In this document: positions 1 to 58,304 of the stretch, in pieces
Numbering within the stretch: position 1 is the first letter of the stretch
Layout: every line of letters starts with the position of its first letter
Assembly (NCBI RefSeq): GCF_026210795.1
Contig: NC_089433.1
Location: 1-64,000, forward strand
Origin: Rhizophagus irregularis
Lineage: Eukaryota
Direction: 5' to 3'
Length of the DNA: 64,000 bases
Notes under the pieces: model-generated
What the model was told of the DNA's origin: nothing
Databases searched by the model: none
What the model saw: the letters and a program-made list of their open reading frames with translations, nothing else
Translations under genes and position numbers: made by a program

Positions 1-20
1 AAAAACTAATCAGGACGAAG

Positions 21-311
21 ATGAGATTACCCCAGAGCTTCTTAAGAAAAATAGGAGCTAAACGCACCCGATGGTTCATGCCGGTCCAATCACACTTGAC
101 ATACGACAATCTTTCAGAAATCGCATTAAGACATAAAATTAACCGTCTTGATGCAGGAAAAAATTACGCTTTGGGTGATCCAAAATCGAAGAAGGAGCCC
201 ATATCTGATTCTGAAAATACACCAAGCCTGGTACCTCAGCTTAAAAATGATGATTATAACCCTTTCAAGGGACAGATAGCAGAAATAGATTCAATGTTAG
301 TTGGTTTCTAA
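21..311 (+). CDS. Unknown protein, probably the C-terminal part of an ORF running in from outside the window
   Basis: 96-aa ORF at the window edge; no motif recognised. Confidence 0.3.
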   Translation: MRLPQSFLRKIGAKRTRWFMPVQSHLTYDNLSEIALRHKINRLDAGKNYALGDPKSKKEPISDSENTPSLVPQLKNDDYNPFKGQIAEIDSMLVGF

Positions 312-588
312 AATTATGTAATTAATATATTATTCGAGATCCTGCCAAAATGGGGCAGGAGTTGCGCCTGAATTTCGTCAAGAAGCCTATATAATTGGTC
401 TTAAATTAACATTGGATAGATTGGCACGGGAGCTAGAGTTTGCGCTAAAAGATGATTATTCTAAGCCAGCCAGTCCAGAGTGATCACCAGCTCAGAAGAA
501 TTTGCTGAGCCATGCACAGCGCCTTCGGCCAGATTGTGCGACAATAACCTTATTTTTTTGACTGAAATAATCTAACCATATATAAAAA

Positions 589-978
589 ATGCATATAGTT
601 AATTTGCTAGAATGTCTTCCGCCAAAGTTAATACCATTTATTATAAAGGATCTTTCAAACCAGGATCTAAAAAATTTTCGCAGTATAAATGATATATGGG
701 TAAAGGAGGTAGACTTTGAATGGTCTAAAAGAAAGACTCTTTTTGATTTTCAGACTGGATCATTGGTTCAAAGCAACGATACGGTAAAAGACTTTTATTC
801 GAAACTAAAAGAGTACAACAAAAGTGTGGGCTATCATGAAGAACGGCTCAAATAGCTATTCCTCAAAGGAATATCGTCTGAAAATACATTTAAAGTTCTT
901 TTGGATGGGTTAGAAATACTTGCGTTAGATGAGATAATGAAAAGGCTCAGTCAGAGCAGTGATCTACCAGCAAACTAG
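589..978 (+). pseudogene. F-box-like N-terminus fused to a retrotransposon Gag capsid C-terminal-domain-like region (internal TAG at 853-855)
   Basis: LECLPPKLIPFIIKDLSNQDLKNFRSINDIW is F-box-like. GSLVQSNDTVKDFYSKL...YHEERLK*LFLKGI...LALDEIMKRL aligns with the Gag at 15210-15420. The frame stays open past the single stop to TAG at 976-978. Confidence 0.65.
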
Positions 979-1033: not shown

Positions 1034-2005
1034 ATGGCGCATTCAAGCATTTTTAATTTACCGGAACTATTAGAGCGAATTCTATATTTCTTAGCAATAG
1101 ATAAGTCACTATATCCCGCTCTATTTGTATCCCGATTGTGGTACAGATGCGGTGCCCTATTCTATGAAGACGCATTGAGCTAAAGGGAAATGAAGTAGAG
1201 GATAAATCTCGACTGGAAAAATTTATGAAATTAGTACATGGTGTGGTATACCACTCATGGGGAGGGCGAAAACCAATCTATAGCTCAAAATTAACTCATC
1301 TTAAAATATCACATTACCCACTTTCAAATAAAAAAATCAAAGGCATTGTACATACTTTCCAAAATATAATTCATTTAGATTTCGAAGGAAGTACGGACTG
1401 TATTGGTAAAACTCTAAAGCTAATAGCGAAATCATATCCAAATTTGGAGTATCTTAATATATCTGCTTTACGTTTAAGATTTAAATCAGAAAATGATATA
1501 GGTTTATCTGCAATTGCAAATTCATGCCATAGATTAGAATATCTAAATATCTCTAATCGCACAGAATTTTCTGAAATATCAATTTGTAATGTTATTCGCT
1601 CTTGCCCAAGGCTCCAGCATCTTGACCTTAGCTTTTGTAAAATTAGCAATATAACTATTGAAGAAATTGCCAGATCATGTCTTAATTTAAAATATCTTAA
1701 TTTGAGGGGTGTTATAAAATTAGTAAAGAAGCCGTAGATCAGCTGGTTTCTCGCTTAGTCCAAATATCAATATCGAGAATTTTGTGGATACTATAACGCC
1801 TCCTGATCTCATTGGGGTGGTTAGAAATCATCTTACACATAACAATGTTGCTAGTAGACAGATTTTAGCTCAGAGCCTTCAGAGCCTTTTAGACCTAAGT
1901 ATGCGAGATAATTTGCAGTGGTATTCCGATCCAGGGTTGGCTAGATCAACAGTCCGGAGCAATGATACAGTAGTTATATTTGAAGATCTATGTGCTGATC
2001 ATTAG
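1034..2005 (+). pseudogene. F-box/leucine-rich-repeat (FBXL-like) protein, frameshifted
   Basis: MAHSSIFNLPELLERILYFL...VSRLW F-box at 1034. LRR units ([29 protein letters not shown]) in 1225-1737. Frameshifts near 1160 and 1710. Confidence 0.8.
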
Positions 2006-2560
2006 CTCGGAAGACTTAGCACAGATTTCTGCGTAATGATATAATAGCCGATCACCGGACAGGGCCTGTACGACATAATAATTTTTGCATATATTCGAAA
2101 AACATATTAACCTTTATTCTTTATTTTTTCCCCAAATACAATCATGAGAAAATGTGAAAGAATGTCTACAAGCAACACAGGACCAACTCTAAAAGTAAAT
2201 AGTGACGACAAAAGCATATGTTATGAAAGGCTGAGGGACACGCAATTTCGAGATCGCCAGGCGTAAAACCAACTATGTCTTTCCGGTAGATCTACATGTG
2301 AAAAGGTATGAGAATTCTATTTGCATGTGCCTTCATAGAACTCTTGGCATCATACGACAATGCTAATCACTATTCTTATCTCCTTAACTTCGGCTTGGCG
2401 CTCTTTTTCCAGCAAGATATAAAGCATGTAGGAGTATGTGGAAGTTCAGCCAACTTTCCGCAAAAATAATATCCGTAAAATGTCACAAAATAAGGTATGT
2501 ATATGCTAAAAGTTTTGTATACATGCAAGCGAAAAGTTCTCACATTGGACCATGAATTTA

Positions 2561-2966
2561 GGAAAGTAAGAAGCCTAGCACCTTCACTTGCTTCGTTCGT
2601 AGTGAGGCCAACAAAGATATTTTTAATGTAATAATTGATAGGGATTTGACCGTTAGTGACCTGGAAGCTAAGATCAAAACTGACCGGCCAGATTTAGAAG
2701 AAATAAACATCGAACTATATAGGAAAGATTTCTTTCAAGAAAATAATGTTCTAATCAATACTGTGAATAGCGATAAACCTGAAAAAAGACAAGGGGTATG
2801 ATGGACCCGCAAAAAAAAATTTCTCAATGCTTTTCCTTGGGGGGAAGACTCTGCATCGCCTTTTCCTCTAGAAGAAGGTAAAATAGCCGGCTTAAAACCT
2901 ATTAACATCATCATATACCCCCAGGTGGAGTTGGAAAAAAAGCCTCCCTCGGATATTGGACTCTAG
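2561..2966 (+). pseudogene. Crinkler (CRN) N-terminal ubiquitin-like domain fragment, part of a spliced gene starting near 2144
   Basis: FTCFVRSEANKDIFNVIIDRDLTVSDLEAKIK...NIELYR...INIIIYP resembles the CRN/Ubl header. Flanked by a GT-AG intron. Confidence 0.5.
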
Positions 2967-3307
2967 CGAATCAGAAAGCAAACTTCGCGCGATCCCTACA
3001 GGAGATTCGCTTGCGCTGTCCATTTTCTGAAATAATTAGTATTTTTTATCATGCTATGTAATAGTTTTTATGTATTGTAGGCCGGCTACCGGCAACTATT
3101 TTATTTCATAAATAAAGTATTATTATCTTATCGAATGTACTGTATATGAGAAGCGGGTCACGTGTAATGATGCAATTCCTGTGCTACATAAAAACCTATA
3201 TTAACGCCCAGTATTCCCTTTCCCGAACAGATATAAAATTTTATCTCACTCCGAACGTAACACTATTTTTTTGTCCGAGCCTATTATCACTATAAAAACG
3301 TAACACT

Positions 3308-4515
3308 ATGTCTTCTGAAACCAGTACACCTTATACTCCAGCTTCCACCTCTACTACTGTTGCTGGAAATGAGACGGTCTCGTTGGCGGACGAAATTAAA
3401 AAATATGACACGGTCAAGCTTATAGAATTTTTGCAGGGACATGACTTAGGTCTTAGCGAGACGGCTATCAAATTTTAGAAGAAGAAGAGATTGATGGTCG
3501 TGCCTTCCTCAAAATGACCGAACAGAGGTTCAGAGATTATGGCATGAAGGGAGGACCAGCTGTAAAGCTTGTGGAATTTGCTAAGGAGTGTAAAGATAAA
3601 AAGTTGAGGTCGTTCTCCTCGTACAAGACTAAGAAAGAGTTGAGTGAGGTGTTGGAGAAATATGGGATTGTTAGCGGGGATATAACTCGCATTCCACAGT
3701 TCATACCACGTAAGTAATATCAGATTAAAGGAGTTCTTTTTTTTTATATATTTCGAGCTCACATATCATAATATAGCCATCCACACTATCAACGAAAGCG
3801 CCCCGAATTTAAGCTATGTATTGACGACATCCTTCGTAGAATAAAAAATATGGGTCCAGTTGTAGATAGTAACGAAGCTATGCGGTGCGAGTATATTTCA
3901 ACGATCTTACATACGGCTGTAAGTATTCTCAGCGACTTGGTAATCACACCTCAGGCAAATATAATTGGTGAAGAAAACACAGGCCGTGTCGACTATGCCA
4001 TCAAAAAAATTATCAGCGAGATGCTGGAGGAAATAATTTGCATAACCGAAGGCAAACAGAATCAAGCAACTATAGGTATCTGCCAAAACTTACTACAATG
4101 CCGAAGTGCTTGCGATGTAAGTATAACAGATTCTACTAGCTCGCTCGCTATAGGATGATCATGGGCTATTGCTAACTTACTTCTCTATTTCCCTCGATTT
4201 GAATATAAATATCAACAAAAAAAAAGAAAGGTGGATGATGCATTCGATCCCGACTACGACTACGTCTATGGTATAGTCAGTACTGGAACTGACTGGTACT
4301 TCATTCTTCACAGCACTGAAGGTATCTATAGTACGAGCAGGACCGAGTATCGAATTTCACTTACAGAAGACGCTCTCAAAGATGATACAGAATTGCGTAA
4401 GAATGTGAAGAGGGTTTTAGAAGTGATCGTAGGATTATTAAAGGATAGAGCAGTAGGTAGTGAGGAACCCGCAACTAAGAAGCACCGTGTAGAAGAGATA
4501 ATTAAGAAAAAATAA
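3308..4515 (+). pseudogene. SAM-like domain + PD-(D/E)XK-like nuclease protein (spliced, frameshifted)
   Basis: EEIDGRAFLKMTEQRFRDYGMKGGPAVKL is SAM-like. GRVDYAI...ICITEGKQ...QNLLQ...YVYGIVSTGTDWYF is restriction-endonuclease-like. Introns near 3710-3776 and 4117-4200. Confidence 0.7.
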
Positions 4516-4688
4516 TCATGTATATTAGATAGACGTCATGTATCACGGGCTAAGTCCCGATCTTGTATTTATTTTTGCATGTATTAATAAAAAAAAAATT
4601 GAATTTTGCAGGTATTTGATAAGCGAAAAAATATATAGTCACTCGAGTGGAGTCGAGGGGCTATAAACAATTTATTATATCATAATCC

Positions 4689-5240
4689 TTAGCATAATGC
4701 TCGCGCTAGAGCCAATATATGTTCTGACCCTAAAACAATAGTCTTGGTGAATGCATCGTATAAAGCACCTGGTTTGTGCTTTGAAGGGGCTAAATCCGGG
4801 TGATGGAGGAATTTCATAAGCACGTCGTTCCTCCAAGTTTTCATCTCTTCTTGCTCCCAAGTTATTCCTATTAACGTGGTCAAGTTATTAATGGAATAGT
4901 TCATTTGGATTAGATTCTGGAGCGAAGATCGTTTATTTTTTTCTAGAGTAAATAGACTCATTCCTCCCATAACAGCAGATTCTACACTAATAGGAACCCT
5001 TTTACAAATATCCGATCTACTCGCTAAGATAGATAAGGGTGGAATTAGAGCTGGGTGGTAGAAGTCGGCTAAGGGGTCCAATTCGAATTCGCCAACATAC
5101 AAAGTCCCAATATCTTCTAGGTAATCGGAAAGCCTATCCACATATTTATAGCCTTCTCGAATCAACTTCTGAAATAGCTTTCCATTTGGGTCGATCCATC
5201 GGTCTGTTAAAATATTGAATACTGTTTTTTGCTTGTCCAT
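4689..5240 (-). CDS. Hypothetical protein with N-terminal NxxTxRWIxxxGxxFxKL motif
   Basis: 183-aa intronless ORF. The N-terminal motif resembles a short adaptor motif of large DNA virus proteins. Confidence 0.5.
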   Translation of the reverse strand: MDKQKTVFNILTDRWIDPNGKLFQKLIREGYKYVDRLSDYLEDIGTLYVGEFELDPLADFYHPALIPPLSILASRSDICKRVPISVESAVMGGMSLFTLEKNKRSSLQNLIQMNYSINNLTTLIGITWEQEEMKTWRNDVLMKFLHHPDLAPSKHKPGALYDAFTKTIVLGSEHILALARALC

Positions 5241-5369
5241 AGAAATGAAGTAGTATGGTGTGGTATATATTTTTCGTTTATGTTATACTTTTTCCACCGA
5301 AGTTCAATTCGGATTTTTCCATAATTTGAAATCGGATTTTATAATGGAAGTGAAGAAAGAATATAATAA

Positions 5370-5597
5370 ATGGATCGTCTTACCTGCCCACATATTAGAA
5401 AGGATGGGAGTACTTGTGGCCGAGTCTGCACCCGCTTGGCAGGATGTTCGCTCCACTGGAAATCGGGTGCAAATAATATGCTAAAATCTCCATGCAGAAT
5501 ATGTGATAAACCTACATTATCTTATACGGGCTATTGTTCCAAACATGCCAAAAAAATCTATCGTCACCTCGAAAGAGAGAGACAACGAATAAATTGA
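5370..5597 (+). CDS. Small Cys/His zinc-finger protein
   Basis: CPHIRKDGSTCGRVCTRLAGCSLH and CRICDKPTLSYTGYCSKH in 75 aa. Confidence 0.6.
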   Translation: MDRLTCPHIRKDGSTCGRVCTRLAGCSLHWKSGANNMLKSPCRICDKPTLSYTGYCSKHAKKIYRHLERERQRIN

Positions 5598-5769
5598 TCC
5601 CAGCTGAAGGCACTCAGGGTAAGGGATCGTGCCTACTTGTATGATTGTCATAAACCCCTATTAATATTTTTTTTCTTGGCAAAAGAGATCAGCGTGAACA
5701 ATTGTTCACGATCAGCTTAAATATTTTCCGATTTTGAATACTAGCATTATAGAACATTAAAATATTATC

Positions 5770-7323
5770 ATGTCATCCGAACTTGATTCATTGAGACAAC
5801 GCATTATTGAGCTTGAGGCCGAGAATGCTGAGGTTAAGGCCAAATATATCAAGGTTATGGATGAGAATGCAGAGGTCAAGGCTGAGAATGCAAAGTTAAG
5901 GTGCGCTTTGGAAGAACGTGAAGCTAGGTTCACGAGACTAGAGCAGAGAGATAAAGAAAAGACCAACCTTATTGCCAAAATGGATGATGATATCAAGGAA
6001 ATCAAACAATCATCGGCCAATGCCAGCTCTGTCGAGAATCCCAACAATGTTGTTCGCCTGGGTAAACTAGAAAAGATGGCAAAGCCATCAAATACATCTG
6101 ATAGTACATTTAATTCTAATGCATGCAAACCTATTTGTACAGAAACTAAGTCATTGGAGGATAAAGAGACGGATGATTTATTGGATGAGGAGTATAGGAG
6201 AAAGGTTAGCGATGAGATCAGGCAGAGGAAGCGGGAAAAAAAGCTTCAGAGCGAATTGATTGTCCAGGAGTCATCACCAGCAATTAACACCAGTTGTATA
6301 ACAGACCTCTCTACGACTAGCACTGGACTTGTAACTCCCCCAGAACAGGTAGTTGAAGAATCGATTCCAAAGGAATCATCTGCAGAGTCAGCGATACCCT
6401 GTGAGTCTTTTGGAAACAAGCAGGACACTCCACCCCAAAAAATTCCCTATAATCAGAAAGTAGAACAAGATTTAATACGCGAACTACTTGAATTTATTAA
6501 ATGCCATAATTCCACATCCTTACCGAATTCTATATCTAGCAAACATATTCCAGATGTCCCAGTCAATGCTGACCTAACTCCAGGTTCTGTACTTCATTTA
6601 GCTCATTTATTTGACAAGGCTGAAAAGACCGGTCGGAAAGAAAAATTACGATGGTATTACTATAGTGAGGAATATGAAAAAAAGATTGTAACCCTTAGAT
6701 CCGAAAATGATATTAGCGATCAAATGGCAAGAACGCAGATTTATGATGAAATGGAGCTGTATCTTCCCGGTAAAAAGAGAGAGTATTTGCGTAAGATGAC
6801 ACAAAAGGCTAAAAACATCTATACCTTGTTTAAAGGAATAGGAATAGATAAAATTGGAGTGGTTACATCTAGTGCTGATGCAATCTCTGGACTAACTGAT
6901 GCACAAATCCAGAATATAATAAATCTTTATACTGATGAACTAACCAAATCTCAAAAATTGATCGGCGTGAACAATTGCTCACGCACACGTGGTCTGCCAG
7001 CTGAAGTACCAGCATTCTCTCAGCCAAATGCTCCATCGGAAATGATTTCATCAGACATGTCTCAAGCAAATGTACCATCTGCATCCCAATCTAAGCCCGA
7101 TCATTCTTATTTTCGCAACAAGATATTGGATCAATATTCTAATCTATATAGAGAATGTAGTAGTGAAAATTTTGATTATTATGGGATTACTGATGAGACA
7201 TCAGGGGACTATATCTGCCCATTATGCAAATTAGGTCATGATGATGAAGAAATAGAAGGTAGGTATAAAGCAGGATCTTACTTTATTAAATGTGAACAGC
7301 GTGAAATTGAGATAGTTGTGTAG
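5770..7323 (+). CDS. Coiled-coil protein with uncharacterised helical domain and C-terminal CxxC..H zinc finger
   Basis: 517-aa intronless ORF. Heptad-rich N-terminus, WYYYSEEYEKK...LRKMTQKAKNIYTLF domain, and CPLCKLGH...C. Confidence 0.75.
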   Translation: MSSELDSLRQRIIELEAENAEVKAKYIKVMDENAEVKAENAKLRCALEEREARFTRLEQRDKEKTNLIAKMDDDIKEIKQSSANASSVENPNNVVRLGKLEKMAKPSNTSDSTFNSNACKPICTETKSLEDKETDDLLDEEYRRKVSDEIRQRKREKKLQSELIVQESSPAINTSCITDLSTTSTGLVTPPEQVVEESIPKESSAESAIPCESFGNKQDTPPQKIPYNQKVEQDLIRELLEFIKCHNSTSLPNSISSKHIPDVPVNADLTPGSVLHLAHLFDKAEKTGRKEKLRWYYYSEEYEKKIVTLRSENDISDQMARTQIYDEMELYLPGKKREYLRKMTQKAKNIYTLFKGIGIDKIGVVTSSADAISGLTDAQIQNIINLYTDELTKSQKLIGVNNCSRTRGLPAEVPAFSQPNAPSEMISSDMSQANVPSASQSKPDHSYFRNKILDQYSNLYRECSSENFDYYGITDETSGDYICPLCKLGHDDEEIEGRYKAGSYFIKCEQREIEIVV

Positions 7324-7429
7324 TCTCATTGCTTTACAATAGTCTGGGAATTTTAATCTTTTTTTCGAATGAATAGGTCTATATGAGAAAAAAGGGATTT
7401 AAATTCTTTGCAGTCATATAAAAAGGAAA

Positions 7430-7969
7430 ATGACTGAGTCTGTTAAAATACTAACCGCCAATTATCTGGATTGGCATGCCAAATTAACTGGGTTACCAAG
7501 TATTTTGACAGATAAGATTCGTTCCAAATTATACAAAAGATATAAAAAAGAAACTGGAAATGAGCCATGGCAACTATCAGAAGTACATGAATCGGAAGTT
7601 ATAAATTCAAAGCCAGAAAAAGGGCCCATCACCTTCGAAGCCAGACCTGATCCAGAATTAATTATCAAATCCGTCTTAGAGCATTTCACATACTTGAAAT
7701 TCCGAAATAGTTTTAGGGGGATTGATAATTATAATTTTGCATCACTTCAGCCATGGAGCTCACCATGTCCTATTTGCAATGGAAAACATGGGAATTATGG
7801 ATTACATGGCTCATGGTACTGCGAAAATGGGAATCAGCTCCCTTATGACCCTGAATTAGCGAAGTTCTATTCTCAAGATAAGTTGGAATATTGTCTTACC
7901 TGCAACACTTCAAGCAATAAACTCAAGTTCGCGATCGTGAAAATGCGCAGTCGCAATGTGGTGATGTAA
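7430..7969 (+). CDS. Hypothetical zinc-finger protein
   Basis: 179-aa ORF with CPICNGKH...CLTC, similar in pattern to the C-terminus of the 5770 ORF. Confidence 0.6.
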   Translation: MTESVKILTANYLDWHAKLTGLPSILTDKIRSKLYKRYKKETGNEPWQLSEVHESEVINSKPEKGPITFEARPDPELIIKSVLEHFTYLKFRNSFRGIDNYNFASLQPWSSPCPICNGKHGNYGLHGSWYCENGNQLPYDPELAKFYSQDKLEYCLTCNTSSNKLKFAIVKMRSRNVVM

Positions 7970-8319
7970 TTATTGTCTTATTGATCCCGATTTGTGCGAA
8001 TCACATCCTCTAAAACATTATCCGAATATAGGTATTTTTTTCGTCAATCATCATTTCGTGATTTGGGGATAAGAATTGCAAGGGATGAAATGTCAGAATG
8101 CAAGTTCGTTATAACTGTTATAAAATAGTAATATTAAATGATGGGGATCGTTCATTCTGCAGAATTTACAAGCACGCATATGTAATAGAATTTTTATTTT
8201 GTATAACTTGCAATGTATAATCTATTATCTATTCATTCATCTACAACAGTATTTATGAAAAAAATATAATTATTTTAAATTTTCATAATCATGATTGGCA
8301 CCATAATAACTACATGGGG

Positions 8320-9303
8320 TTATGGTCTAGAAATCGTATCAAGTACAATATTTAGTTCCATTGTCCATCCACATAATAATACCAAGTGTTCATTCCAGTC
8401 TATTTTATAATAAACCGTATTGGTACCATTCCAGTAAACAAAATATGGTGCGCGAGAAGGTCTGACATTTGGAGGATTTAGAGGAGTAGCAGGGACCGAT
8501 GCTACTCCAGGATTCGGATTCTGGCGGACAGGACCTAGAGTATCCGGCAATGCGATTCCAATAAATTCTATCGCAAGAAGATTTTGTTGAATCACAGTAA
8601 GTTTTTCAAACGCGAATCCACGATCGGGGTCGCGATTATAAAAAACCTGTCAAGTATTTAGATCTGATGAGCAAAACCAATTTGCAATTCAAATTTTTTT
8701 ATGTAAGAATTTGATAAATTACCTCAATATACACATCCGGTGGCGGACATGCGTTAACGTATGGTTTAGATAATTGTGCATGAGTTGGCCAATTAAACCA
8801 GATACCAACATCTGATTTATATTTATTTTCCATCATCTTACAATCTGTACCTTGTGTTACGAACCAATTTGGATTATGTGTATCGGCTGAACTATTTAAT
8901 TTGAATTGAATTCGTGTTTTATGCCCTCCATCAATCTAATATAGAAAGTGGTCAGATTCAAATCAATGATACAGTATGTAGCTTGAAATAAAACTTACTT
9001 TGATGAACAAGTCCTTCCCAATCATTTCAGCGTGGTATCTATCAAATACCGCCTGCTGTACATATTCATTACATTCATCTAGCTCGGGAAGGGTAAACTT
9101 GACAAGGGTTTGGTTTTGTTTTTGCGTTAAGATTTTGTCAATTTTCGTGCAGATCTATTGTATATAGTCGTTAGCCACACTTCTTTGCTATTTTAAAACA
9201 GTCTTAAGCAACACTTAAATACTTGATTAATTTTAGAGGCCTGTCTGGTCTCTCGAGTAACTGAAACGGAGATTTCTTCTGAGCCTTCAGTCGTGACGCT
9301 CAT
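8320..9303 (-). CDS. Spliced gene, putative Uma2-like PD-(D/E)XK endonuclease-fold protein
   Basis: Exons joined across GT-AG introns give MSVTTEGSEE...YKSDVGIWF...PPPDVYIE|VFYNRDPD...IEFIGIALP. Confidence 0.5.
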
Positions 9304-10247
9304 TATTATTTGATAAATTGTTCCACGGTACAGGAAGCAAGAGAAACGCAGAAAACAAAAAAAAAAAAAAAAAAAAATACTACATACGTTTCCTTTATAG
9401 GGCGAATTTTCCAGAACTTCTTACATCATTACCGTTCCACAGTCACGTGATATTGGCTGACCGACGTACTCCCAATAATATCTAAGCATCTAGCGTGACA
9501 GTTACAAACCTTCCATCAACTAAGGATGAAAATTCTCGAGCAGAGCCATCATCAAAAATCTGCATGACAGCACGTTGACACCGAATGATTCAGTGTACAT
9601 CATTCAAGGTTAGATGCTTTGTTGTTGCAGACGATTCAGATGATGATGGATATAATGGATACGGTGGATATAAAGAATATGGTGAATGTGATAGAGGCTA
9701 TTATTATCGTGATGGAAGGTACGAAAGAAAAACCTCACCAATGATGAGTCCTATTATCTCTCCGGTGACCGCCTAAGAGAATTTCGCATATTTGGTACTC
9801 GATTGTCCTATAAGTTTATTACTACGTTTCTTTTTTTCGAATCACGTGGGTGGCTTATCCAAAAGAGACTGCGGTATTTTAAACCCGATCACCTGAAATG
9901 CGCAGAAGATATCGGGAAAATTCTTGCCGGAGAATAGGGGCTGTACGACGTAAGATTGGCATATATATTCTCATTATTATTTTTTTTGACTTTATTTTTG
10001 CGTCATGTCTCCGGCCACACTATTATCATATCAATAAACAATATTCGGATATAGGCATTTCTTCAAGCAATCCTTATTTCGCATATGAGATTGGGGGGAT
10101 ATCTATGCTAATCATGAAGTCATTTTTATCGATTTGCAGGGGGATTAACGAATGACGAAATTTACAAATGCTATAAAAACCCGTCTTTAGCTTTAGCCAT
10201 CAAGATAGCTATTTTTTCTGACCACCGAGAGTTATAAGTGGGTAGGT

Positions 10248-11636
10248 ATGGAGAACCAAGATAGCTCTGTTAATACGGAAGCGACCACTGTTGATGAAAT
10301 CAATATTGGCCCAATCGGCAACACGCAAAGTAGAGAAAAGAGCAGTATTCCGGAATCTGAGAGACCCTCTCTTGTTAATCTTAGAAACCTTGGATATAAT
10401 ATCCTCAAAAGTCTCGAAGATAAAACTGTTAGAGATATTGATTTCCCAGAACTAGGTTCATGCTCCGAATGTGGCAATGACATTTTAATGTCCCCTCTCA
10501 AGGCGTTCTCATACCTCACCTGCGGACATATTTTTCACAGACTTTGTATCGAAAAAAAACTTTTCCTTGGCACTCCAAGCGCATGTCCAGCCCCCAACTG
10601 TGGAAAGAGTGTGGACATCTTAGATCAAGCTGATGGCCTTAATATCATTTCCAATCCGCCAATACCCGATCCCAGAGTGACCTCTCAATCAAGTGGAATT
10701 TCACCTTTATCCAACTCAATGAGAACGTTTACCCTATCTTCACCACCTATATGGATGGGAGGGGTCGAGGGTACAGCAACTCAGCAAGTCAAAAGTGCTT
10801 TGAGATGCGCTAAATGTTCTGAAGACCTTTCTTCGTCCCTCCCTCCTCTGCGAAGCGCCTCAACGGCAGGCTTTCTTCGAATCGCCCCTCAACCTCAAGG
10901 TCCTTCGAAACCGCTCGTATATTTAACCTGCAAGCATATTGTCCATTACAACTGTATCGATAATCCACGAAAGTTGTGTCCTATATGCGCATCGGCTAAT
11001 ATGGAAATTGATGATTTGGAAACTCCAACAGAGCAGAGTTCAAGTACTGCACAGAAAAAACGTTCTAGCGAGTTTGCTTCTGAAAAAGATTCAAATAAAA
11101 AAGCGAAGCAGACCAGGAAGCAGATTGATCGAAATGATTCCCCTACATTGAAAAAACTAATTATGGAGTTGACTTCTCCTGAGTCCCTAGAAGATGGTCT
11201 CTCTCGAGATCCCCTCATCACTTTGCAGTCGAGTGTCTTTGAGATGGACGTAAACTCGCTTGATTTTCTCGATTTATATAATAAGATTGGTACTGCTGAA
11301 GACAATCTTCGAAGAACCACTCATGATTTGCTTCGATGCTATTATATTTTTGGCCAAGCCACTAAGCAGTTATTCGATCATTTTAGAAAAACTTGTAATG
11401 AGGATGCATCTAATGCTAAAGTTAACGATAGAATCATGAATCAGATTTCTGTACAAGATAAGCTTACCGAGACTAACCTTCGAAAAAGAAAGGAAAGGGG
11501 TAAAAAGGTTTTCAGGCTTTTTAGTAATGTTGGTGGTATAGAAGCAATAGAACGGTTAAAGTCTTTTAATGCTACTACAATCTTAAATCTATCCCCAGAT
11601 GATGTCGATTTTCTTATTGCTAGATTAAACGAATAA
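10248..11636 (+). CDS. Double RING-finger protein (putative E3 ligase) with C-terminal helical domain
   Basis: CSEC...LTCGHIFHRLCI...CPAPNC and CAKC...LTCKHIVHYNCI...CPIC. 462 aa, intronless. Confidence 0.8.
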   Translation: MENQDSSVNTEATTVDEINIGPIGNTQSREKSSIPESERPSLVNLRNLGYNILKSLEDKTVRDIDFPELGSCSECGNDILMSPLKAFSYLTCGHIFHRLCIEKKLFLGTPSACPAPNCGKSVDILDQADGLNIISNPPIPDPRVTSQSSGISPLSNSMRTFTLSSPPIWMGGVEGTATQQVKSALRCAKCSEDLSSSLPPLRSASTAGFLRIAPQPQGPSKPLVYLTCKHIVHYNCIDNPRKLCPICASANMEIDDLETPTEQSSSTAQKKRSSEFASEKDSNKKAKQTRKQIDRNDSPTLKKLIMELTSPESLEDGLSRDPLITLQSSVFEMDVNSLDFLDLYNKIGTAEDNLRRTTHDLLRCYYIFGQATKQLFDHFRKTCNEDASNAKVNDRIMNQISVQDKLTETNLRKRKERGKKVFRLFSNVGGIEAIERLKSFNATTILNLSPDDVDFLIARLNE

Positions 11637-12333
11637 ATAGTACTACTGCTACATGTATTTTGTGCAACTCTTGATAATAAAGGGTCCTTTTAGGACTGGC
11701 TACGGCCATTTTTGATTTTTTATTTGTAAAGTAGTGTGACACTAATGTCACGGCTCTCAGAGCAAAAATCATAAAGTTTCTGGTTTTCATTTCAGCATAT
11801 AAATTGTCATAACCCATAACTCTGTTCCAAAACTTTGCCAGATTTCATTGGTTTAGCTGTGACATTAATGTCACACTTCTCCCCAATAAGATTTCGAATA
11901 AGAATCCATATGACTAAATTAGCCGATCATCTCGAACATGTGCATTTTATTCGTAATCATTTTTCAGGCTATCCGGCTAAAGAAAAAATCTGAAATCTGA
12001 TTACGGCCAACCATCTCGTGATTTATCGAAACCCTAGAACTATTGAGGGAACTGGTAGAGATGTCATGTGATACGATATACAGTACATCATGCCACAAAC
12101 TGATTTAGCCGAAGACGCATGTAAATATAAGATTAGCTTAGCCCGAAAGATGAATTTGAGTTTAGTCTCTCTAAATTGGCTACAAATCGATAAAACCGCT
12201 ATAAATCATTAAAACTGCTTAACCGGCAAATTTGAAACATGTTATCCATTAGTATAAGATACTAAAAAGTTGCTAAAAACGCTATAAATCAATAAATTGC
12301 TATAAATCGTTATAATTCGTTCGAACAAGAAAT

Positions 12334-13375: not shown

Positions 13376-13672
13376 CTGGCTTAACTGACTGATTCTGGGA
13401 AATATCTTAATTATAGACTATTGCTATTAACTGAAAATTAATATTATTTAGCCAAAGGTGCAATGTATAACTTATTCTTTATTTTTTACGCTAAATAATC
13501 TGTATACATGATCGCCTAGTAAAATTGGTCAAAGGCGCTATACATGAAAATGTATCACCTGCCAAATTTTTCAGATTAGTCCTTAACCCAGATCCCGGTT
13601 AAGATTATGCGCTTTCTGAGGATCAATATAAATCAAAGGTTCTCCCATTCTCTTTTATAATCACAAAAAAGA

Positions 13673-16128
13673 ATGGCATTTCGGAGGTCCCATCCAAGGC
13701 AGAGAAGAACATGTGAAGAATATAAAGCTGAACTGGAGGAGGAGAACTACCATCTTTGTAGTGAATTGCAAGCAGAAGTTGATAGTAACTGCCAAAATGA
13801 AAAGCAGATCAGGGAGCTGGTACGTGAATGTGTCCGTTGTGAACAAGAAATCCAAACTCTTAATGGTGAGATAGAACGTCTTGAGAATGCTTCGAAAGAG
13901 GAGATAGTAGAGCTAAAATCCGAAATTTCCAGCCTAAAAAAGCAACTATATCAAGCTAAGAAGGATATTCGTGATAATGAAAAACATATTTCTAGTATAG
14001 AGAGTCTGTTAGTAGATTCTGAGGAGCAGGTAGAGAAATTGCGATGCCGGATCAGAACCATCTCATCACGAAAAAATTCGCCAGAACGAGGAAATTCTCC
14101 AGACTTGTATAATCCTAATATTAACTTAGAAATGGCTACCATCACGGAGCTAGCAAATGCTATAGATGGTTATCTGAATAATACAACAATAGGTAGAGAA
14201 ATCTTAGCTGATCAAATAAAAAGGGCGACAAGGCAGATTCGCTGAAAAGAGAATAATTGGCATCAGGATTTAGTCCGTGAGCAACGAAGGCGATATGATG
14301 CAGAGGCTGAGCGTGATAATGAAATTATACGAAGGCAAAATGCTGAAGGAGTGGAACAAATGGTTATTGCTGACCTTTATCAGTTGCGGATCAATGCTCA
14401 AAATCAAGTAAATAGAATGTTAGACAATATAACAGGAAAGCGAACCCGTATTGGTATATTGCTACAGGAAAAATTTGCCTTACAATTGCTGTATCAGCGA
14501 AATGCCCATCACTTACAGCGCAGTAGAAAGGATATAGGTCTGTTAGAATTTAATCGTGACAGGCTCTATGAGTGATATGAGAAATGGAAAAATAAGACCC
14601 AAGCAGAGCGACAGAATAATTTAAATTTGCAAGGACAAATTTTGGCGCTTCAGAATAATCCACCTAATCAAGTAAACATGGCAGGAATACCTCATCCATA
14701 TTTTGACTGGGATGATAGTATCCCAGACTTTCTTGCGCAACTTAGACTAGACTTGCAAAATCGGGGAATAGATCCAGCAGGTGCAGGGGGCAATGGAAGA
14801 GCTCAGGCACTAGGACATTTAAGAGCATGTATGAGAGGAAGAACGCCTTAGAATGGTTTGATGAAGAGATTACTACAAAGACAAATTGGGAATTAACTAA
14901 TCTGACTGATGGTACAGGACAAGCCAATTTGGTAGCTGTAAACGGGCGTACAGCTATTCAGATCGGTGCTGATGGATTAAATGAGGCACTCTGACAACCT
15001 GGAAATGCAATAGTAAAATTAAGAGCTGTAGAAGGTCCATGGGACGAGGACTGGCGCATAGCAGGAGGTCGTCCTACTAATCTTCCTGTTAATTTACCGA
15101 ATGCTGGTAATGGAACTACAGTAGTTGTAGCTGGTATTCGATTTGGTCAAGCCGTATGGTGGCTAAAAACTCATTTTCCTACAGTAGAAGAGGAACTTCG
15201 GGATTTGATGTATGGAACAATCAGAAGGGAGACATGACTATAGATGAATTATATAGAAAAATATTACGAATAGGTAGACGAGCCAACTATAGACCTGAAG
15301 AATTACGTAGAAAGTTCTTAGATGCTTTACCACTTTTATGGCTTGAAAAAGCTGAAGATATTGGTGAACATTTGCCATTAGATGAATTAGCTAAAAAGCT
15401 TTATGAGATAGAATTACGCCGAATAGCTAGACATAAAAGAGATAGAATATCTGATCCACTAGTATCTAATCGAACATCTCGGCAAATATATGAACCTTCA
15501 CCTGTTTCAGCCTCACAACAGCATGGAATATCTTTAGAAGATATGCAAAAAGCAATCCAGAATGCATTAGCACAGCAAAAAACTGAATACCAGTCTTTAT
15601 TAGAAAAACAAAAAGCCGATTTCCAATCACAAATGGCCCAGCAAACTAAAAAGATACCTCCACCAGTTCCTCCTAAAAATATGGAACAGCTTCGATACAT
15701 ATGAAAGTGCTAATCCTTTCCCCGATACACTTACTAGGGAAGAAATAATGAGAGTGGTCGCAAAAGCTTATGGGCCACCTCCCCTCCACCGCAAAAAGCC
15801 AGAAAAGTTGCAATCATCTAGAATCGATAGATTAGAGTCAAAAATAGATGAAATTGGTCAAATGACATCTAAGTTTGGTAGGATATCACTTAATGATCAA
15901 TCTCGAAAGCCTTTTTATTGCAGTAATTGCGGACAGGAAGGGCATAAGAAAAACAATTGCCCAAGGTTAAATCCTGTAGCTAAATCCAATTTTACTCAAT
16001 GTTACTATCCTCAACTTCCATCTACACAGCCCCAATATACGCCTCCAGATTCAGATAATGAGGAAGATGGTTATGACAAAGTAGAAAATAGGTGGTATTA
16101 TGCACCGGAAAAAAAAACAGGTAAATGA
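13673..16128 (+). pseudogene. gag: Gag-like polyprotein: long N-terminal coiled coil, retrotransposon capsid, CCHC zinc knuckle
   Basis: Joined across stops (14243, 14573, ~14992) and frameshifts: PYFDWDDSIPDFLAQL...LRACMRGR..LEWF...WLKTHFP...Q(K)GDMTIDELYRKI...RRKFLDAL (major homology region-like), then CSNCGQEGHKKNNC. Confidence 0.8.
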
Positions 16129-16783
16129 TAAGTTGGCCAGTGATACTAATGCAATCTCACCCCTAGAATCTAGCCAACCTGAAACGTACGATCAGCTATT
16201 GTCTAAGCTCTCACCACTGATACGAAAAATGTGCTTGTCTCGAAAGGCTCGGGAGGAGGAATCGAAAGAATCAGATGAGTGGTTGTCATCTTTACAATAT
16301 CTGAATGCTAATATAAATGACTTAACTATTTCTGAATCTTTTTTAGATCCCGGCAGTGAGTTCGGTGGTATAAATGACCCAGCAATTAAGGTGCTTGGAT
16401 GGAAGGCTGATAAACCATCTAATTTTGCCATAAAGGGCAATTCTAAGCATATCACCGATTCATTAGGATGGTATACAGACGTGCCAGTTACTTTGAAGGA
16501 TAAAGAAGATAAGACGGTCACCATTATTGGAAATTTTGTTCGTATTGATAATGGTGAAACAGAACCAATGCTATTTTTTGGTATGTCAAACATTCGGAAG
16601 GTTCAAGGCGTCCCCGAGCCGAATAAAAATCAGTTTCGCATAAAGTTACATGGAAAGGCATATATTATCCCAACCTTTAGCAAGGCTCCGGTAGTCAAGG
16701 ATCTGCCAAAAAAAGATCAGGACCAAGTATCTACCGATTCTTCTAGTCTAACTGGTGAGAAGAACTTAAAAAAAAATGCATAA
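16100..16783 (+). CDS. Retropepsin-like aspartic protease
   Basis: SFLDPGSEFGGIN active-site-like motif, flap-like IKGNS...SLG, and MLFFGMSNI (ILG-like). Overlaps the end of gag at an A9C run. Confidence 0.7.
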   Translation: MHRKKKQVNDKLASDTNAISPLESSQPETYDQLLSKLSPLIRKMCLSRKAREEESKESDEWLSSLQYLNANINDLTISESFLDPGSEFGGINDPAIKVLGWKADKPSNFAIKGNSKHITDSLGWYTDVPVTLKDKEDKTVTIIGNFVRIDNGETEPMLFFGMSNIRKVQGVPEPNKNQFRIKLHGKAYIIPTFSKAPVVKDLPKKDQDQVSTDSSSLTGEKNLKKNA

Positions 16784-18910: not shown

Positions 18911-19681
18911 AGGTCACTAAACATGAATCATCCCGAAATATTGGACATCCAGCAATGACATGGCCTTTCAGCATGTTGGTCATGGGGTAGAAGTGGTTCA
19001 GGTAAGACTAATTTACTTGCGAATCTTTTCTTCGGTAATAAGGATGAATATGTGCAAAGAGGGAAGAAAGGTGGGTCTCGCTACATCAAATGTGATGATC
19101 TAATTGTTTGTGGGTATCATCCTGATGAACCAAAGTGGGCATATGTGAGATACATATATAATATGATTTCGAAAGACCCAAGAGCACCTTACTATGAGAA
19201 TATTAGTTTCAGTTATATTCCACCCGAAAGAATTCCTAGTACAAGAACATTCTCACCCGAAAGAAGTAAATTATTTATTTTTGAGGATCTGTGCCTCGCT
19301 CCAGATCATATACAAAATCGTATTGGTCAGTTTTTTGGGAATGGGCGTCACCGAAATATTTCATGTATATATATTACGCAAAAGTATCATAAAGTCGATA
19401 CATTCAAACGTGAAAACTCGACTCATTTAGTATTATTTAACTCTGGTAGCAGTATCCAAGACGTGTCTAAGATTGTTGGACGATATATTGATGATGTAAA
19501 GGGTGCATCTATGGTTATTAATAGTTACCTTCGAAAAGGCGAGTTTGTTGTATTTGATCTCACTAGGCCAGAAGATGATCCTCTTGCAATCCGCCTAAGG
19601 TTTGACACTCCACTGAACTTACAAAAGGAGATAGAGGCTAGGCAGAAGCGCAAGAAAAAGAGTGCCTCAGCTAATGAGTAG
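18832..19681 (+). pseudogene. A32/FtsK-HerA-like DNA packaging ATPase (one frameshift just before Walker A)
   Basis: WPFSMLV.GRSGSGKTNLLANL (Walker A), KLFIFEDL (Walker B), and GRHRNISCIYITQKY...KREN (A32-family arginine/glutamine motifs). Extra base in ATGGGGTAGA near 18981. Confidence 0.88.
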
Positions 19682-19731
19682 AATCTAACTTCATAGATAC
19701 TAACTTTTTTTCGTAATTATAAAAAATTGGA

Positions 19732-20862
19732 ATGGGGGAACCAGTTATTTATATCGATCCTCAAAAAGCTCATGATTTAGACCAGCATCTTGCTTTGCAA
19801 AAAATATATTATCGTCCTGAAGGTCTTTATCAAAATGTTAAGGGATTATGGGATGCTTGTAAAAAAGCCGGCTACAGCTTTCCATTTATTGATATAAAAA
19901 AATGGCTTGAGGGCCAAGCAATGTATCAAATTTTTCGTCCTTCGCCAAAGCATATACCTTATGCCAGTTACTCTAAAATCACAAAGCCAAATACTGTGCA
20001 CCAATGTGATTTAATCGAAATACCATATGATGAAGATGTGGATACAAATTTACTAGATGATGGTCCAATATATTACTATGTACTATTGGTTATAGACTGC
20101 GCGACTAGATATAAAGATTTCATTTTTTTAACATCAAAGAGCAGTGAGGAAGTTGCGGAAGCATTTAAGAGTATATATAATAATCCCGATAAGCCTCTCA
20201 ACTGGCCTCGAAAATTGCAATGTGATAAGGGCACTGAGTTTATGGGATACGTAACTTTATTAATGGATGAACATGGCGTTGAGATCCGAAGAATTATAGC
20301 ACGTTTCAGGCATACAAGCTTGGCTATGGTCGACCGTTATGCTGGATTATTCGAATTAAGAGTTTTTAAAAATCAGTATTCAATAGAGTTTCTCCTGCCT
20401 ACTGGTAAGCGCTGTAGAGAATGTGAGCGGTTTGCAAGAAAAATTGTTGATAATATGAATGATAGCCCAACTCGATTGATTGGGATGAGTCCTAATGACG
20501 CCACAAAACTTGAGCAGATATATTCCAAACCATCAGTAAAATATAATCGCCCAATAGGTGTTGATGAACCACAACTACCAAAGGGTACTACTATCCAATT
20601 TTTGCTCGCTCCTGGAGAGTGGGAAAACGATCCTTTCGAACGACGCAGAATAACAGATCCGATATGGTCTCCCAGCCTGCATAAGATTCGGAAAATTGTT
20701 GTTGGAAAGAATCCTCCAATGCCTATTTTATATTATTTAGATGAATCAGGACCCCAACGCCCTTTCGTGAGAGAACAATTGATGCATATTAAGGAAGAGC
20801 CCATGTTACCTCCTAGGTGGATATTGGGAGATAACCGAATGCGTACAAGGCGCTCCTTATAA
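19732..20862 (+). CDS. Polinton/Maverick-type retroviral-like (rve) integrase
   Basis: LQKIYYRPEG...IKKWL..QAMYQI, HQCDL, LLVIDCATRY, LQCDKGTEF, AMVDRY, and C-terminal RRITDPIWS...LYYL...PFVREQL. Intact 376-aa ORF. Confidence 0.9.
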   Translation: MGEPVIYIDPQKAHDLDQHLALQKIYYRPEGLYQNVKGLWDACKKAGYSFPFIDIKKWLEGQAMYQIFRPSPKHIPYASYSKITKPNTVHQCDLIEIPYDEDVDTNLLDDGPIYYYVLLVIDCATRYKDFIFLTSKSSEEVAEAFKSIYNNPDKPLNWPRKLQCDKGTEFMGYVTLLMDEHGVEIRRIIARFRHTSLAMVDRYAGLFELRVFKNQYSIEFLLPTGKRCRECERFARKIVDNMNDSPTRLIGMSPNDATKLEQIYSKPSVKYNRPIGVDEPQLPKGTTIQFLLAPGEWENDPFERRRITDPIWSPSLHKIRKIVVGKNPPMPILYYLDESGPQRPFVREQLMHIKEEPMLPPRWILGDNRMRTRRSL

Positions 20863-21690: not shown

Positions 21691-22050
21691 TTAATAAGAC
21701 AGGGGAAGAATACTTGTAAGATTATTTATATGGGATTTGATTACTGCATGAACATTTGCAATTTCTTCTCCTGCTGTAATCCAATCATAACGCGGAGTAT
21801 AGAGAACTGTATAAATATGGGTTATTTCTTGTTCACTACAGTCTAGCCGATATTTGATAAAATCAAGATCTTCACGAAATTCCCTTTCTTTTTGCTTTAA
21901 AATAACTCGAAATGCTTCAGAATTCCATTGATGATTCACAATAAGACAGGAATATAGTATATCCTTAATCTTGAGATTACTAAAAATTAATTCAAGCAGT
22001 TCAGAACAAATAAATGGGCTAGGCCCAGCATTTTTTTGCGCAAGAAGCAT
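21691..22050 (-). CDS. F-box protein
   Basis: ICSELLELIFSNLKIKDILYSCLIVNHQWNSEA. Confidence 0.7.
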   Translation of the reverse strand: MLLAQKNAGPSPFICSELLELIFSNLKIKDILYSCLIVNHQWNSEAFRVILKQKEREFREDLDFIKYRLDCSEQEITHIYTVLYTPRYDWITAGEEIANVHAVIKSHINNLTSILPLSY

Positions 22051-22079
22051 GGTGTATATGCAAGAAAGCAGTATAAAAT

Positions 22080-23442
22080 AACAGAGAAACTAGCAAAGTT
22101 CAAAATAAAAATTCTATATAATTTTGAGCGAATATGCTTATAGCGCGGGCAAAATACTGGGTCAGTAGTAGTACCCCAAAGTAATCAATATAATAATGCC
22201 TAAAAGTAATCGATGTAGTAGTACTCCAAAGTATCCCAGAGTAGAAACTATACAGGAACAAGAGCTAGAAGGCGAAAACAAGCAAGTTTATGGTAACCCA
22301 CTCAAGCAGAATTATATATAGGAAAGAAAAGAGAAATTTCACTTGAGTGGCCTACCACCGATAGGCAGGAAAGAGACTGGAAAGGCAGAAAGGTTCAGGA
22401 GAATACACGAAAAAAGATATGAAAGCGATATAGCCTGAACCAATTCGACACTTCGCATGAGCCTCACACAGCAATCAGAAAGGGCATATAAAGGGCGGGA
22501 TTGCAAGAATGGGCATGAAACACCTTGCACTTCGTGCCTCATCCTCGGCAATCAAAAGGGTTATGGAAGGCAGGATTGCACATCTAGGTCACCAATTCGG
22601 CACTTCGTGCTTCATTCCTGGCAATCAAAAAGTGAGGAAATGGATTGTGAAATGTCTTCGGCAAATAGATGGATTGCAAATTCGGCACTTTGTGCTCATC
22701 CGAAACAATCGAAATGGGCATCTCCAAATCTCCGACCAACTGATACACCAGATCGAATCCTGAATATCCCTTGAAAGTTGCAAGAAGGTTGCGAGAAAGT
22801 GACGGGGAAGTGCCTGGAACTGGCGAGGAACTGGATCACATGATTAACGCAGTAGGCGCAGTAGAATTTCGTTAATTTCGGCCAGCACTATTCCATATTT
22901 TTTTTGCATAAATTTCAGGATGCAATATCTCAGCATCCAGGCATCCGATTCATGCGATCTTAGCATCATTGGAAAGCTCTCAACGCCCTCATCAGAACGA
23001 GCTTAAAACCGCACGAATCCAATCACAGGAAGCCAAGATATTCCGCCCTAAAGATTAGGTCAAAAATATAGCATAATGCCGGCCAAAATCTGATTAGCAA
23101 ATTTACTGCGCCACCCGATCACAACATGATTTTTAGCAATCAAGGCCGGCCAAGCATTTTGGCCACAAAAAGGCTACAGAGCAATGAAAACAAGCAAATA
23201 GTTACAAGGCAGTAAAAAGATAGCAGAACAATAAAATCAAGCAAATATCTATAAAGCAACCAAACAGTCACAGACCAGTGAAAACAGATGGATAGCAATA
23301 AAGCATTAGAAAGGGCATAGACATGTAAAAATAAGTAAGTAGGGATCAATATCTATAAGTAGGCATCACTATAGTGTAAGTAGATAGATTAAGTAGACAT
23401 CACTATATATATAGTGATGTCTACTTAATCTATCTACTTACT
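22080..23442. repeat. Putative terminal (TIR-like) non-coding region of the element
   Basis: No convincing ORF and strong A/purine skew. Three degenerate GCACTT(C/T)GTGC..CAT...CAATC repeats at 22525-22715. Terminal palindrome. Confidence 0.5.
23376..23441. repeat. Perfect 66-bp palindrome
   Basis: GTAAGTAGATAGATTAAGTAGACATCACTATAT|ATATAGTGATGTCTACTTAATCTATCTACTTAC. Confidence 0.97.
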
Positions 23443-57400: not shown

Positions 57401-57846
57401 CTATTTCACAGGATAGGAATTGACATTAAAGGACCATTACCGATCACCAGTAGTGGAAATAGATATATTATCGTCGCCATGGATTATTTTACAAAATGGC
57501 CAGAAGCAAGAGCGATATCCAATATTAAAGCAGAAACAGTAGCTAAATTTATTTATGAAGAAATTATTTGTAGACATGGAGTTCCACAAGAAATTCTATC
57601 AGATAGAGGAACATCATTTATGAATAAATTGATTGATGAATTATGTGAAAATTATCAAACTAAACATCATTTTACCTCAGCTTATAAACCTCAAACAAAT
57701 GGAATGGTTGAAAGATTTAATCGAACAATTGGTGAATATATTGCAAAATTAATTCAAGATAATAATAAGGAATGGGATCAATTAATCGATGCAGTACTTT
57801 TAGCGTATCGAACGAAGAAACATAATACTACAGGAAAAACACCATT

Positions 57847-58257
57847 CTCTCTATACTAGAAATATGTTTTTCATTATCACGAATATCCTTCTTAGTTCTT
57901 AGCTTGATATAGTTGCTTTTTTAGGCTGGAAATTTCAGATTTTAGCTCTACTATCTTCTCTTTCGAAGCATTCTCAAGACGTTCTATCTCACCATTAAGA
58001 GTTCAGATTTCTTGTTCACAACGGACACATTCACGTTCCAGCGCCCTGATCTGCTTTTCATTTTGGCAGTTACTATCAACTTCTGCTTGCAATTCACTAC
58101 GAAGATGATAGTTCTCTTCTTCCAGCTCAGCTTTATGTTCTTCATATGTTCTTCTCTGCCTTGGGTGAGATCTGCGAAATGACATTCTTTTTTCATAATT
58201 ATAAAAGAGAATGGGAGAACCTTATTGATCCTCAGAAAGCGCATAATCTTGACCAGG
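57847..58257 (-). repeat. Inverted second copy of the 5' part of the zone-1 gag gene and its leader
   Basis: The reverse complement matches about 13590-14004 (MSFRRSHPRQRRTYEEHKAELEEENYHL vs MAFRRSHPRQRRTCEEYKAELEEENYHL). Confidence 0.95.
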
Positions 58258-58304
58258 ATATTACTTTGCAGAAATACAAGGAAAAAAGTATCCCCAACCA
58301 AATT

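Follow-up and report, generated by a model that had tools for sequence, protein, structure and literature searches.

The question raised by this locus is whether an open reading frame at the left end of the window (the whole stretch of 64,000 nucleotides of Rhizophagus irregularis DNA that was analysed) encodes a genuine fusion between an F-box and the C-terminal domain (CTD) of a Gag capsid (CA), and, if so, which proteins such a fusion might act upon. The frame spans 589..978 of the forward strand and has 129 codons, broken by a single in-frame TAG (853..855, + strand) that is open in relatives; the frame, the stop and the motifs quoted in the earlier note on this DNA are all present in the sequence. 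The best homolog, P0002 of Rhizophagus irregularis, is 98% identical and has an open frame with W at the position of the stop, and a public DNA contig spanning 496-1019 has four differences from the window, one of them at 854. The tail of the window copy, SQSSDLPAN, corresponds to a 1-nt shift relative to the usual SPEQ-stop ending of the family. Rescue of the stop by a 72-nt GT..AG intron (784-855) was considered and rejected: it would delete two helices of the CTD and had 0 supporting reads. The gene models P0018 and P0207 use such an intron, skipping the stop. The window ORF is a broken copy of a conserved accessory gene of about 125 amino acids, carried by Maverick-like DNA elements of arbuscular mycorrhizal fungi.

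The fusion is not peculiar to the window copy, because it has 106 relatives and many of them are intact. A search with the stop read through as X returned 112 candidates, of which 106 proteins form the family. They are mostly 120-130 amino acids long, their named sources are Rhizophagus irregularis, R. clarus and Glomus cerebriforme, and 84 of them were aligned, the short or extended ones being omitted. A metagenome scan yielded 61 loci with a family member, most only 1-3 kb long; L061, a 26-residue match (E 1e-4), was excluded from the locus analyses. Of the 40 metagenomic copies that span the whole gene, 17 are intact and the other 23 broken. W or Q positions account for 55 of 77 stops, the pattern expected of decaying mobile-element copies. 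The intact homologs sought in the earlier note are thus present, in P0002 as in the metagenomic copies, and the fusion is no oddity of one decayed copy. The family keeps its length and stop down to about 53% identity, and a conserved leader of about 45 nt (545..588, + strand) marks the place where most related loci start being homologous to the window. This is a free-standing gene, because the family has its own conserved stop and its own conserved leader. Scans of IMG/VR with the family, the Gag and the integrase gave no match, and an Atlas search with P0002 gave no usable one.

Structure prediction supports the assignment of the C-terminal half (residues 49-123; 733..957, + strand) to the capsid CTD. 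The AlphaFold model has a mean pLDDT of 79.7, rising to 91-94 over residues 51-120, and in it this half has a predicted CA-CTD helical fold with four complete helices. When the model was compared with known structures by VIA-align, the first 38 rows were all capsid domains and the first non-capsid row came at rank 39 (Z 4.5). The best matches were the CTDs of PEG10 (Z 10.1, rmsd 3.9, 84 residues aligned) and MLV (Z 9.6, rmsd 3.0, 78 aligned), and Drt2 was also among them (Z 6.9). For helical bundles, Z values of this kind carry little weight by themselves, and it is the uniformity of the rows that counts as evidence. All Foldseek matches listed were capsid or Arc domains, with the PEG10 CTD first; none reached E<=0.001, either for the family model or for that of P0109, an intact relative of the window Gag. 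A sequence search of solved structures returned nothing useful for the family. Four residues, Q61, Y70, K72 and L73, are invariant in all 84 aligned members, an arrangement like that in the major homology region. Related CTD proteins score above the Retrotrans_gag threshold.

The F-box is degenerate and is the weaker-supported half of the fusion (residues 1-48; 589..732, + strand). Pfam F-box matches 50 of the 84 aligned members at E<=0.05 (best 8e-6), and in a second Pfam scan 11 of 32 members matched at E<=0.005 whereas 21 had no match; three members, P0059, P0070 and P0083, reach the Pfam cut-off. An F-box-like N-terminus is therefore borne out for the family as a whole but not for P0002 itself, the sequence type of the window copy, which has no Pfam F-box match. 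The AlphaFold model has a pLDDT of only 54-68 over residues 1-40, the fold-search matches are filled by the CTD, and the profile match between the family F-box and the element's other F-boxes (17.0) is barely above the maximum of shuffled profiles (15.6). In a wide protein search, the same F-box was also found fused to protease-like domains. Because it precedes these domains too, the segment behind it may be an exchangeable substrate slot, by analogy with the general architecture of F-box proteins.

Constraint on both halves is real but moderate, in line with the purifying selection that the earlier note proposed to look for. A codon model gave an omega of 0.57, and omega=1 was rejected overall (2dL 23.7), for the F-box (10.0) and for the CTD (14.0). 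NG86 estimates, for which the window copy was added to 16 intact loci, were 0.53 over the whole gene, 0.62 in its F-box half and 0.47 in its CTD. Column shuffling gave a null of 0.83 +/- 0.135 with a minimum of 0.519 in 60 shuffles, which lies below the observed 0.529, and this test is by itself borderline. RNA depth over 601-900 was 0 in all three RNA runs at 90% likeness, in samples that may or may not carry intact copies. At 80% likeness the bin of the fusion gene was near 1 and those from 13740 on (Gag, ATPase, integrase) were below 2, whereas families at 1.7-5 kb reached 135-304. The passenger genes at 2149-11700 (SAM-domain, RING and other ORFs) have well-expressed relatives, and the core genes are near-silent.

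The earlier note had implied an LTR-element setting, and here our results depart from it: the carrier is a Maverick-like DNA element, with an integrase of Maverick type, an A32 ATPase and a gene for Gag and protease, and with no reverse transcriptase (RT) or LTR pair seen. The GC content is 35-39% over the first ~23 kb of the window and 17-35% beyond, so that the fusion gene and the Gag share one GC-distinct region. We infer that the Gag 13 kb away is part of the same element copy as the fusion gene; the left end of that copy lies outside the window. The window opens with the broken 3' part of a gene resembling tyrosine recombinases in its motifs only (1..483, + strand; no Pfam or PHROG match); an ORF of related type in the metagenomic locus L008 resembles protelomerase/integrase in the Atlas. 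Behind the fusion gene lies a separate F-box-LRR gene, broken here (1034..2005, + strand), which is its usual downstream neighbour. A double RING-finger gene (10209..11636, + strand) is another passenger of the ubiquitin system, and a further small F-box gene lies at 21691..22089 (- strand), so that the element carries additional F-box, F-box-LRR and RING genes besides the fusion.

The core of the element includes an A32-like packaging ATPase (18959..19681, + strand; Pox_A32 E 4e-9) and an rve integrase (19723..20862, + strand; rve E 4e-7), which we take from its sequence features to be of the Maverick/Polinton type. A broken Gag (13673..16783, + strand; frameshifted at about 15225) comprises a coiled coil, a capsid, a CCHC knuckle and a protease-like end, with no RT behind; its capsid fold is predicted by the structure model of P0109, and a sequence search of solved structures returned only a Copia capsid (E 0.12). 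It lies head-to-head with the remnant of a Maverick-type integrase start (13590..13647, - strand), and the same layout recurs at 57847-58274. RT was found neither among the element ORFs nor in 24 long CTD-bearing proteins or five Gag relatives, and the full-length Gags stop after the protease. The long CTD-bearing proteins and related loci contained no LTR element with RT and a Gag of the window type, and 1-30 kb of the window contains no pair of long direct repeats, the element's left end being outside the window. A capsid was also sought by sequence among the scanned ORFs of the element, which is cut by the window edge, and gave no Pfam or PHROG match. A Gag-CCHC-protease gene lacking RT and twice found head-to-head with an integrase start is possibly a Gag that replaces the jelly-roll capsid in a Maverick-like element.

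The neighbours of the gene in the 61 related loci are the F-box-LRR gene (37 loci), the integrase (2), the ATPase (1) and a protein-primed PolB (1). The integrase and ATPase cases are L025, L032 and L010; the PolB lies 1.8 kb from the fusion gene in L020, and none was found in the part of the element within the window. A Gag adjoins the gene in 0 of the 61 loci, most of which are short. Several observations in these sequences stand apart from the fusion. In L020 (1-1917), a protein-primed PolB-like domain shares one frame with an F-box and an LRR-like tail. In L040 (3827-6837), large transposase-like frames, which we take to resemble those of Plavaka elements, lie directly upstream of a family member. 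A perfect 66-bp palindrome (23376-23441) lies close to the fall in GC content at the right end of the element; it is a lead as the site on which the protelomerase-like recombinases of related loci might act. Beyond the element, the window holds a further element, a decayed Ty3/gypsy one encoding protease, RT, RNase H and integrase (54689-57859), and a tandem repeat with a period of about 60 bp and about 26 copies (61231-62760).

Within the element, the fusion gene behaves as a movable cassette in an array. A gene-junction motif with the core GTCYRGAGCARTGATC (942..966, + strand) lies over the family's usual stop codon, another copy occurs at 1945-1969 in the F-box-LRR gene, and a degenerate one, recognised by eye only and with no PWM score, ends the upstream gene (467..490, + strand). 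Across 121 kb of locus sequence the motif has 80 matches, every one on the strand of the genes; it follows the fusion gene in 46 of 54 cases and precedes it in 13 of 38. These same loci served to train the matrix; one built from non-family sites alone gives the family sites a median of 24.6 bits. Upstream of the gene, 34 segments sort into 16 groups with no relation to one another; downstream, 46 segments sort into six. One public contig joins 544 to 2190, omitting both F-box genes. Across the loci (L001-L060), the oriented motif separates many unrelated element genes, and the gene order differs between copies. Reading the motif as an integron-like attC hairpin was rejected, only two of 16 folds being at z<=-2. 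A scan for a shared promoter motif found only one leader, poly-T runs and a tandem repeat.

The motif-for-motif resemblance to the element's own Gag CTD, from which the earlier note argued, is real but distant. Comparison of the family with the neighbouring Gag CTD, profile against profile, gave a score of 33.5 over 70 columns at 29% identity, against at most 16.7 in 40 column shuffles, and the alignment falls in the register first proposed. With a Gag HMM made from 47 of the 97 Gag relatives, family members reach up to 18.8 bits (reversed controls <=3.5, shuffled <=7.8). Pairwise BLASTP and tblastn against the neighbouring Gag gave no match. Within the 64-kb window, the CTD profile finds two places only, the fusion gene and the element's Gag. 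More widely, the domain occurs as solo proteins, as tandem pairs, as a protease plus a tandem pair (one with LRRs) and in a second, sister Gag family. Further shuffled architectures were seen in P0224, P0264, P0232, P0244, P0251 and P0238: a protease with two capsid CTDs, once with LRRs, and an F-box with a protease-like domain. The mean CTD identity of the family is 35% to the solo CTDs, 33% to the tandem ones, 28% to the sister Gag and 23% to the window-type Gag, the lowest of the four classes; the maxima are 57% to the closest CTD classes, 41% to the sister Gag and 37% to the window-type Gag. A tree was built on 69 columns from 68 representatives of the 240 domains: the F-box CTDs come out as a single clade (support 100), nested in a group made up of free tandem and solo CTDs (support 81) and separate from the two Gag families, and inner branches have supports of 42-66. 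Because the F-box CTDs group with the free CTDs and not with either Gag family, the fusion likely arose, judging from these sequences, from a free CTD module and not from the adjacent Gag.

Our preferred, though tentative, reading is that the protein would be an SCF adaptor that holds other capsid-fold proteins by its own domain of predicted capsid fold and delivers them for degradation. The F-box half would bind the host Skp1, and the CTD would pair with a partner through the usual CTD-CTD dimer surface. As partner, one of the free CTD proteins (single or tandem) or a sister lineage's Gag would be more probable than the Gag that lies 13 kb away, because Ty1 p18 and Drt2 depend on a matching dimer surface and show no cross-restriction. 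Turnover of capsid-type proteins might then serve competition between element lineages or the timing of particle assembly. Several observations weigh against the adaptor reading: the F-box is degenerate, constraint is weak, RNA depth over 601-900 is 0 and no Gag adjoins the gene in the 61 loci. The comparison with Ty1 restriction counts against it as well, since even the closest CTD classes average 33-35% where that restriction involves more than 90%. Of the earlier interpretation, the F-box/CTD architecture, the intact homologs and the purifying selection stand; the LTR setting is not supported, and co-assembly with the element's own Gag is weakened.

The CTD could instead be a self-pairing module like SCAN, which has been proposed to derive from Gag (available text of PMC11011659), and the dimer an F-box decoy that ties up Skp1 or alters SCF with no capsid as target. 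We regard this as somewhat doubtful, even if the low identity to every Gag found and the occurrence of the domain alone, in tandem, fused to proteases and fused to LRRs are as a general pairing domain would have them. Against it, the CTD occupies the exact place of the substrate domain in F-box proteins, and it keeps a complete predicted four-helix fold and the invariant residues like those of the major homology region.

The reading of the earlier note, in which the CTD joins the lattice of its own Gag and recruits SCF for uncoating or copy-number control in the manner of Ty1 p22, now seems improbable. It fits the shared fold and the significant profile match to the co-resident Gag, the presence of both genes in one GC-distinct region and their near-silence in the same RNA runs. 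Yet the window-type Gag is the most distant CTD class and branches apart in the tree; the low mean identity and the grouping with free CTDs therefore argue against p22-style poisoning of the own lattice. Moreover, no LTR element with RT and this type of Gag was found. A near-identical dimer surface, as p22 and Drt2 need, is absent for the two Gag families found, and further families may exist. Ty1 p18 and Drt2 are described as requiring such a surface, with no cross-restriction between subfamilies that differ at 17 CTD residues (available text of PMC13709905).

Equally hard to favour is the view that the gene is a by-product, under weak constraint, of the shuffling of domains in an array that changes fast, or that it is the first exon of longer F-box-CTD-LRR proteins. 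The many broken full-length copies, the variable neighbours, the near-zero RNA and public gene models that fuse the gene to LRRs (P0315, P0319, P0336 and P0339) would all suit it. On the other hand, omega is significantly below 1 in both halves, length and stop persist in distant relatives, the LRR gene that follows has an ATG and an F-box of its own and in L020 is an intact, separate gene, and the RNA joints listed include no spliced joint between the two genes. That the host domesticated the gene as a defence against LTR retrotransposons, in the manner of Drt2 or Fv1, is very improbable: Drt2, a CA-CTD endogenised from Ty1, is under purifying selection (available text of PMC13709905) and matches the fold, and a Ty3/gypsy element lies at 54-58 kb, but the gene is multi-copy, often broken and set among element genes with changing neighbours instead of at a fixed host locus, and the CTD profile finds in the window only the fusion gene and the element's Gag.

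Returning to the SCF adaptor, one can imagine a fungal Maverick-like family that swapped its jelly-roll capsid for an RT-less Gag-protease and encodes a capsid-derived, anti-capsid ubiquitin ligase recognising rival Gag by mimicry, within an array reshuffled at short oriented junctions; this wider synthesis is speculative and, in our judgement, rather unlikely. If the adaptor works as we propose, Gag-derived restriction by a capsid fragment and viral hijacking of SCF would meet in one protein of 125 residues, which would be a natural capsid-directed degrader. The system would also give a handle on how the capsid-less Mavericks of arbuscular mycorrhizal fungi, whose element here appears to carry a Gag instead, spread and are controlled. 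Since intact natural homologs of the adaptor and of the Gag exist, the main claims are directly testable in yeast or in vitro.

The carrier is akin to the Mavericks/Polintons of Glomerales in its integrase, A32 ATPase and protein-primed PolB (the last in L020), and differs from them in having an integrase-linked Gag-CCHC-protease gene and an array of F-box genes. According to the available parts of the sources, Mavericks have expanded in Glomerales (PMC11952901, in which the words Gag and F-box do not appear in those parts), the major capsid protein of the R. irregularis Polinton is not detectable (PMC7805220), and A32 ATPases are present in Rhizophagus and Glomus (10.64898/2026.06.19.733378). 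A Gag-bearing carrier may already be drawn in Fig. 5 of PMC8502044, the legend of which names a Gag and a retropepsin in a PolB-bearing element; neither the legend nor section 3.4 gives a host. In full-text literature searches, mostly without subscription papers, no title or abstract start held an F-box/capsid-CTD fusion. The F-box plus capsid CTD is thus a real, selected and apparently undescribed domain architecture in a Gag-bearing Maverick-like element.

Among known systems, some viral proteins act as F-box adaptors (poxvirus ankyrin-PRANC proteins, polerovirus P0 and nanovirus Clink), and TRIM5 is a capsid-binding E3. The fusion resembles them in the hijacking of SCF, or in the coupling of capsid recognition to ubiquitin, and we know of none in which the part that binds the substrate is itself a capsid domain. 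Closer in origin are Ty1 p22/p18 and Drt2 of yeast, which, like the fusion, are free Gag CA-CTDs made apart from Gag, with Drt2 also under purifying selection. They are near-identical to their target (91.5% between Drt2 and its target Gag) and poison its lattice, as far as the available text of PMC13709905 describes them; the words ubiquitin and proteasome are absent from that review. In contrast, the fusion is at most 41% identical to any Gag found and has an F-box attached. Finally, SCAN and RTL8, described as domesticated capsid-derived domains (available text of PMC11011659), and the lobes of PEG10 and Arc share with the fusion the reuse of a capsid-derived domain outside the particle, and the PEG10 CTD is its top fold match. 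Yet those are fixed vertebrate host genes with no F-box, whereas the fusion gene is multi-copy and travels in a mobile element.
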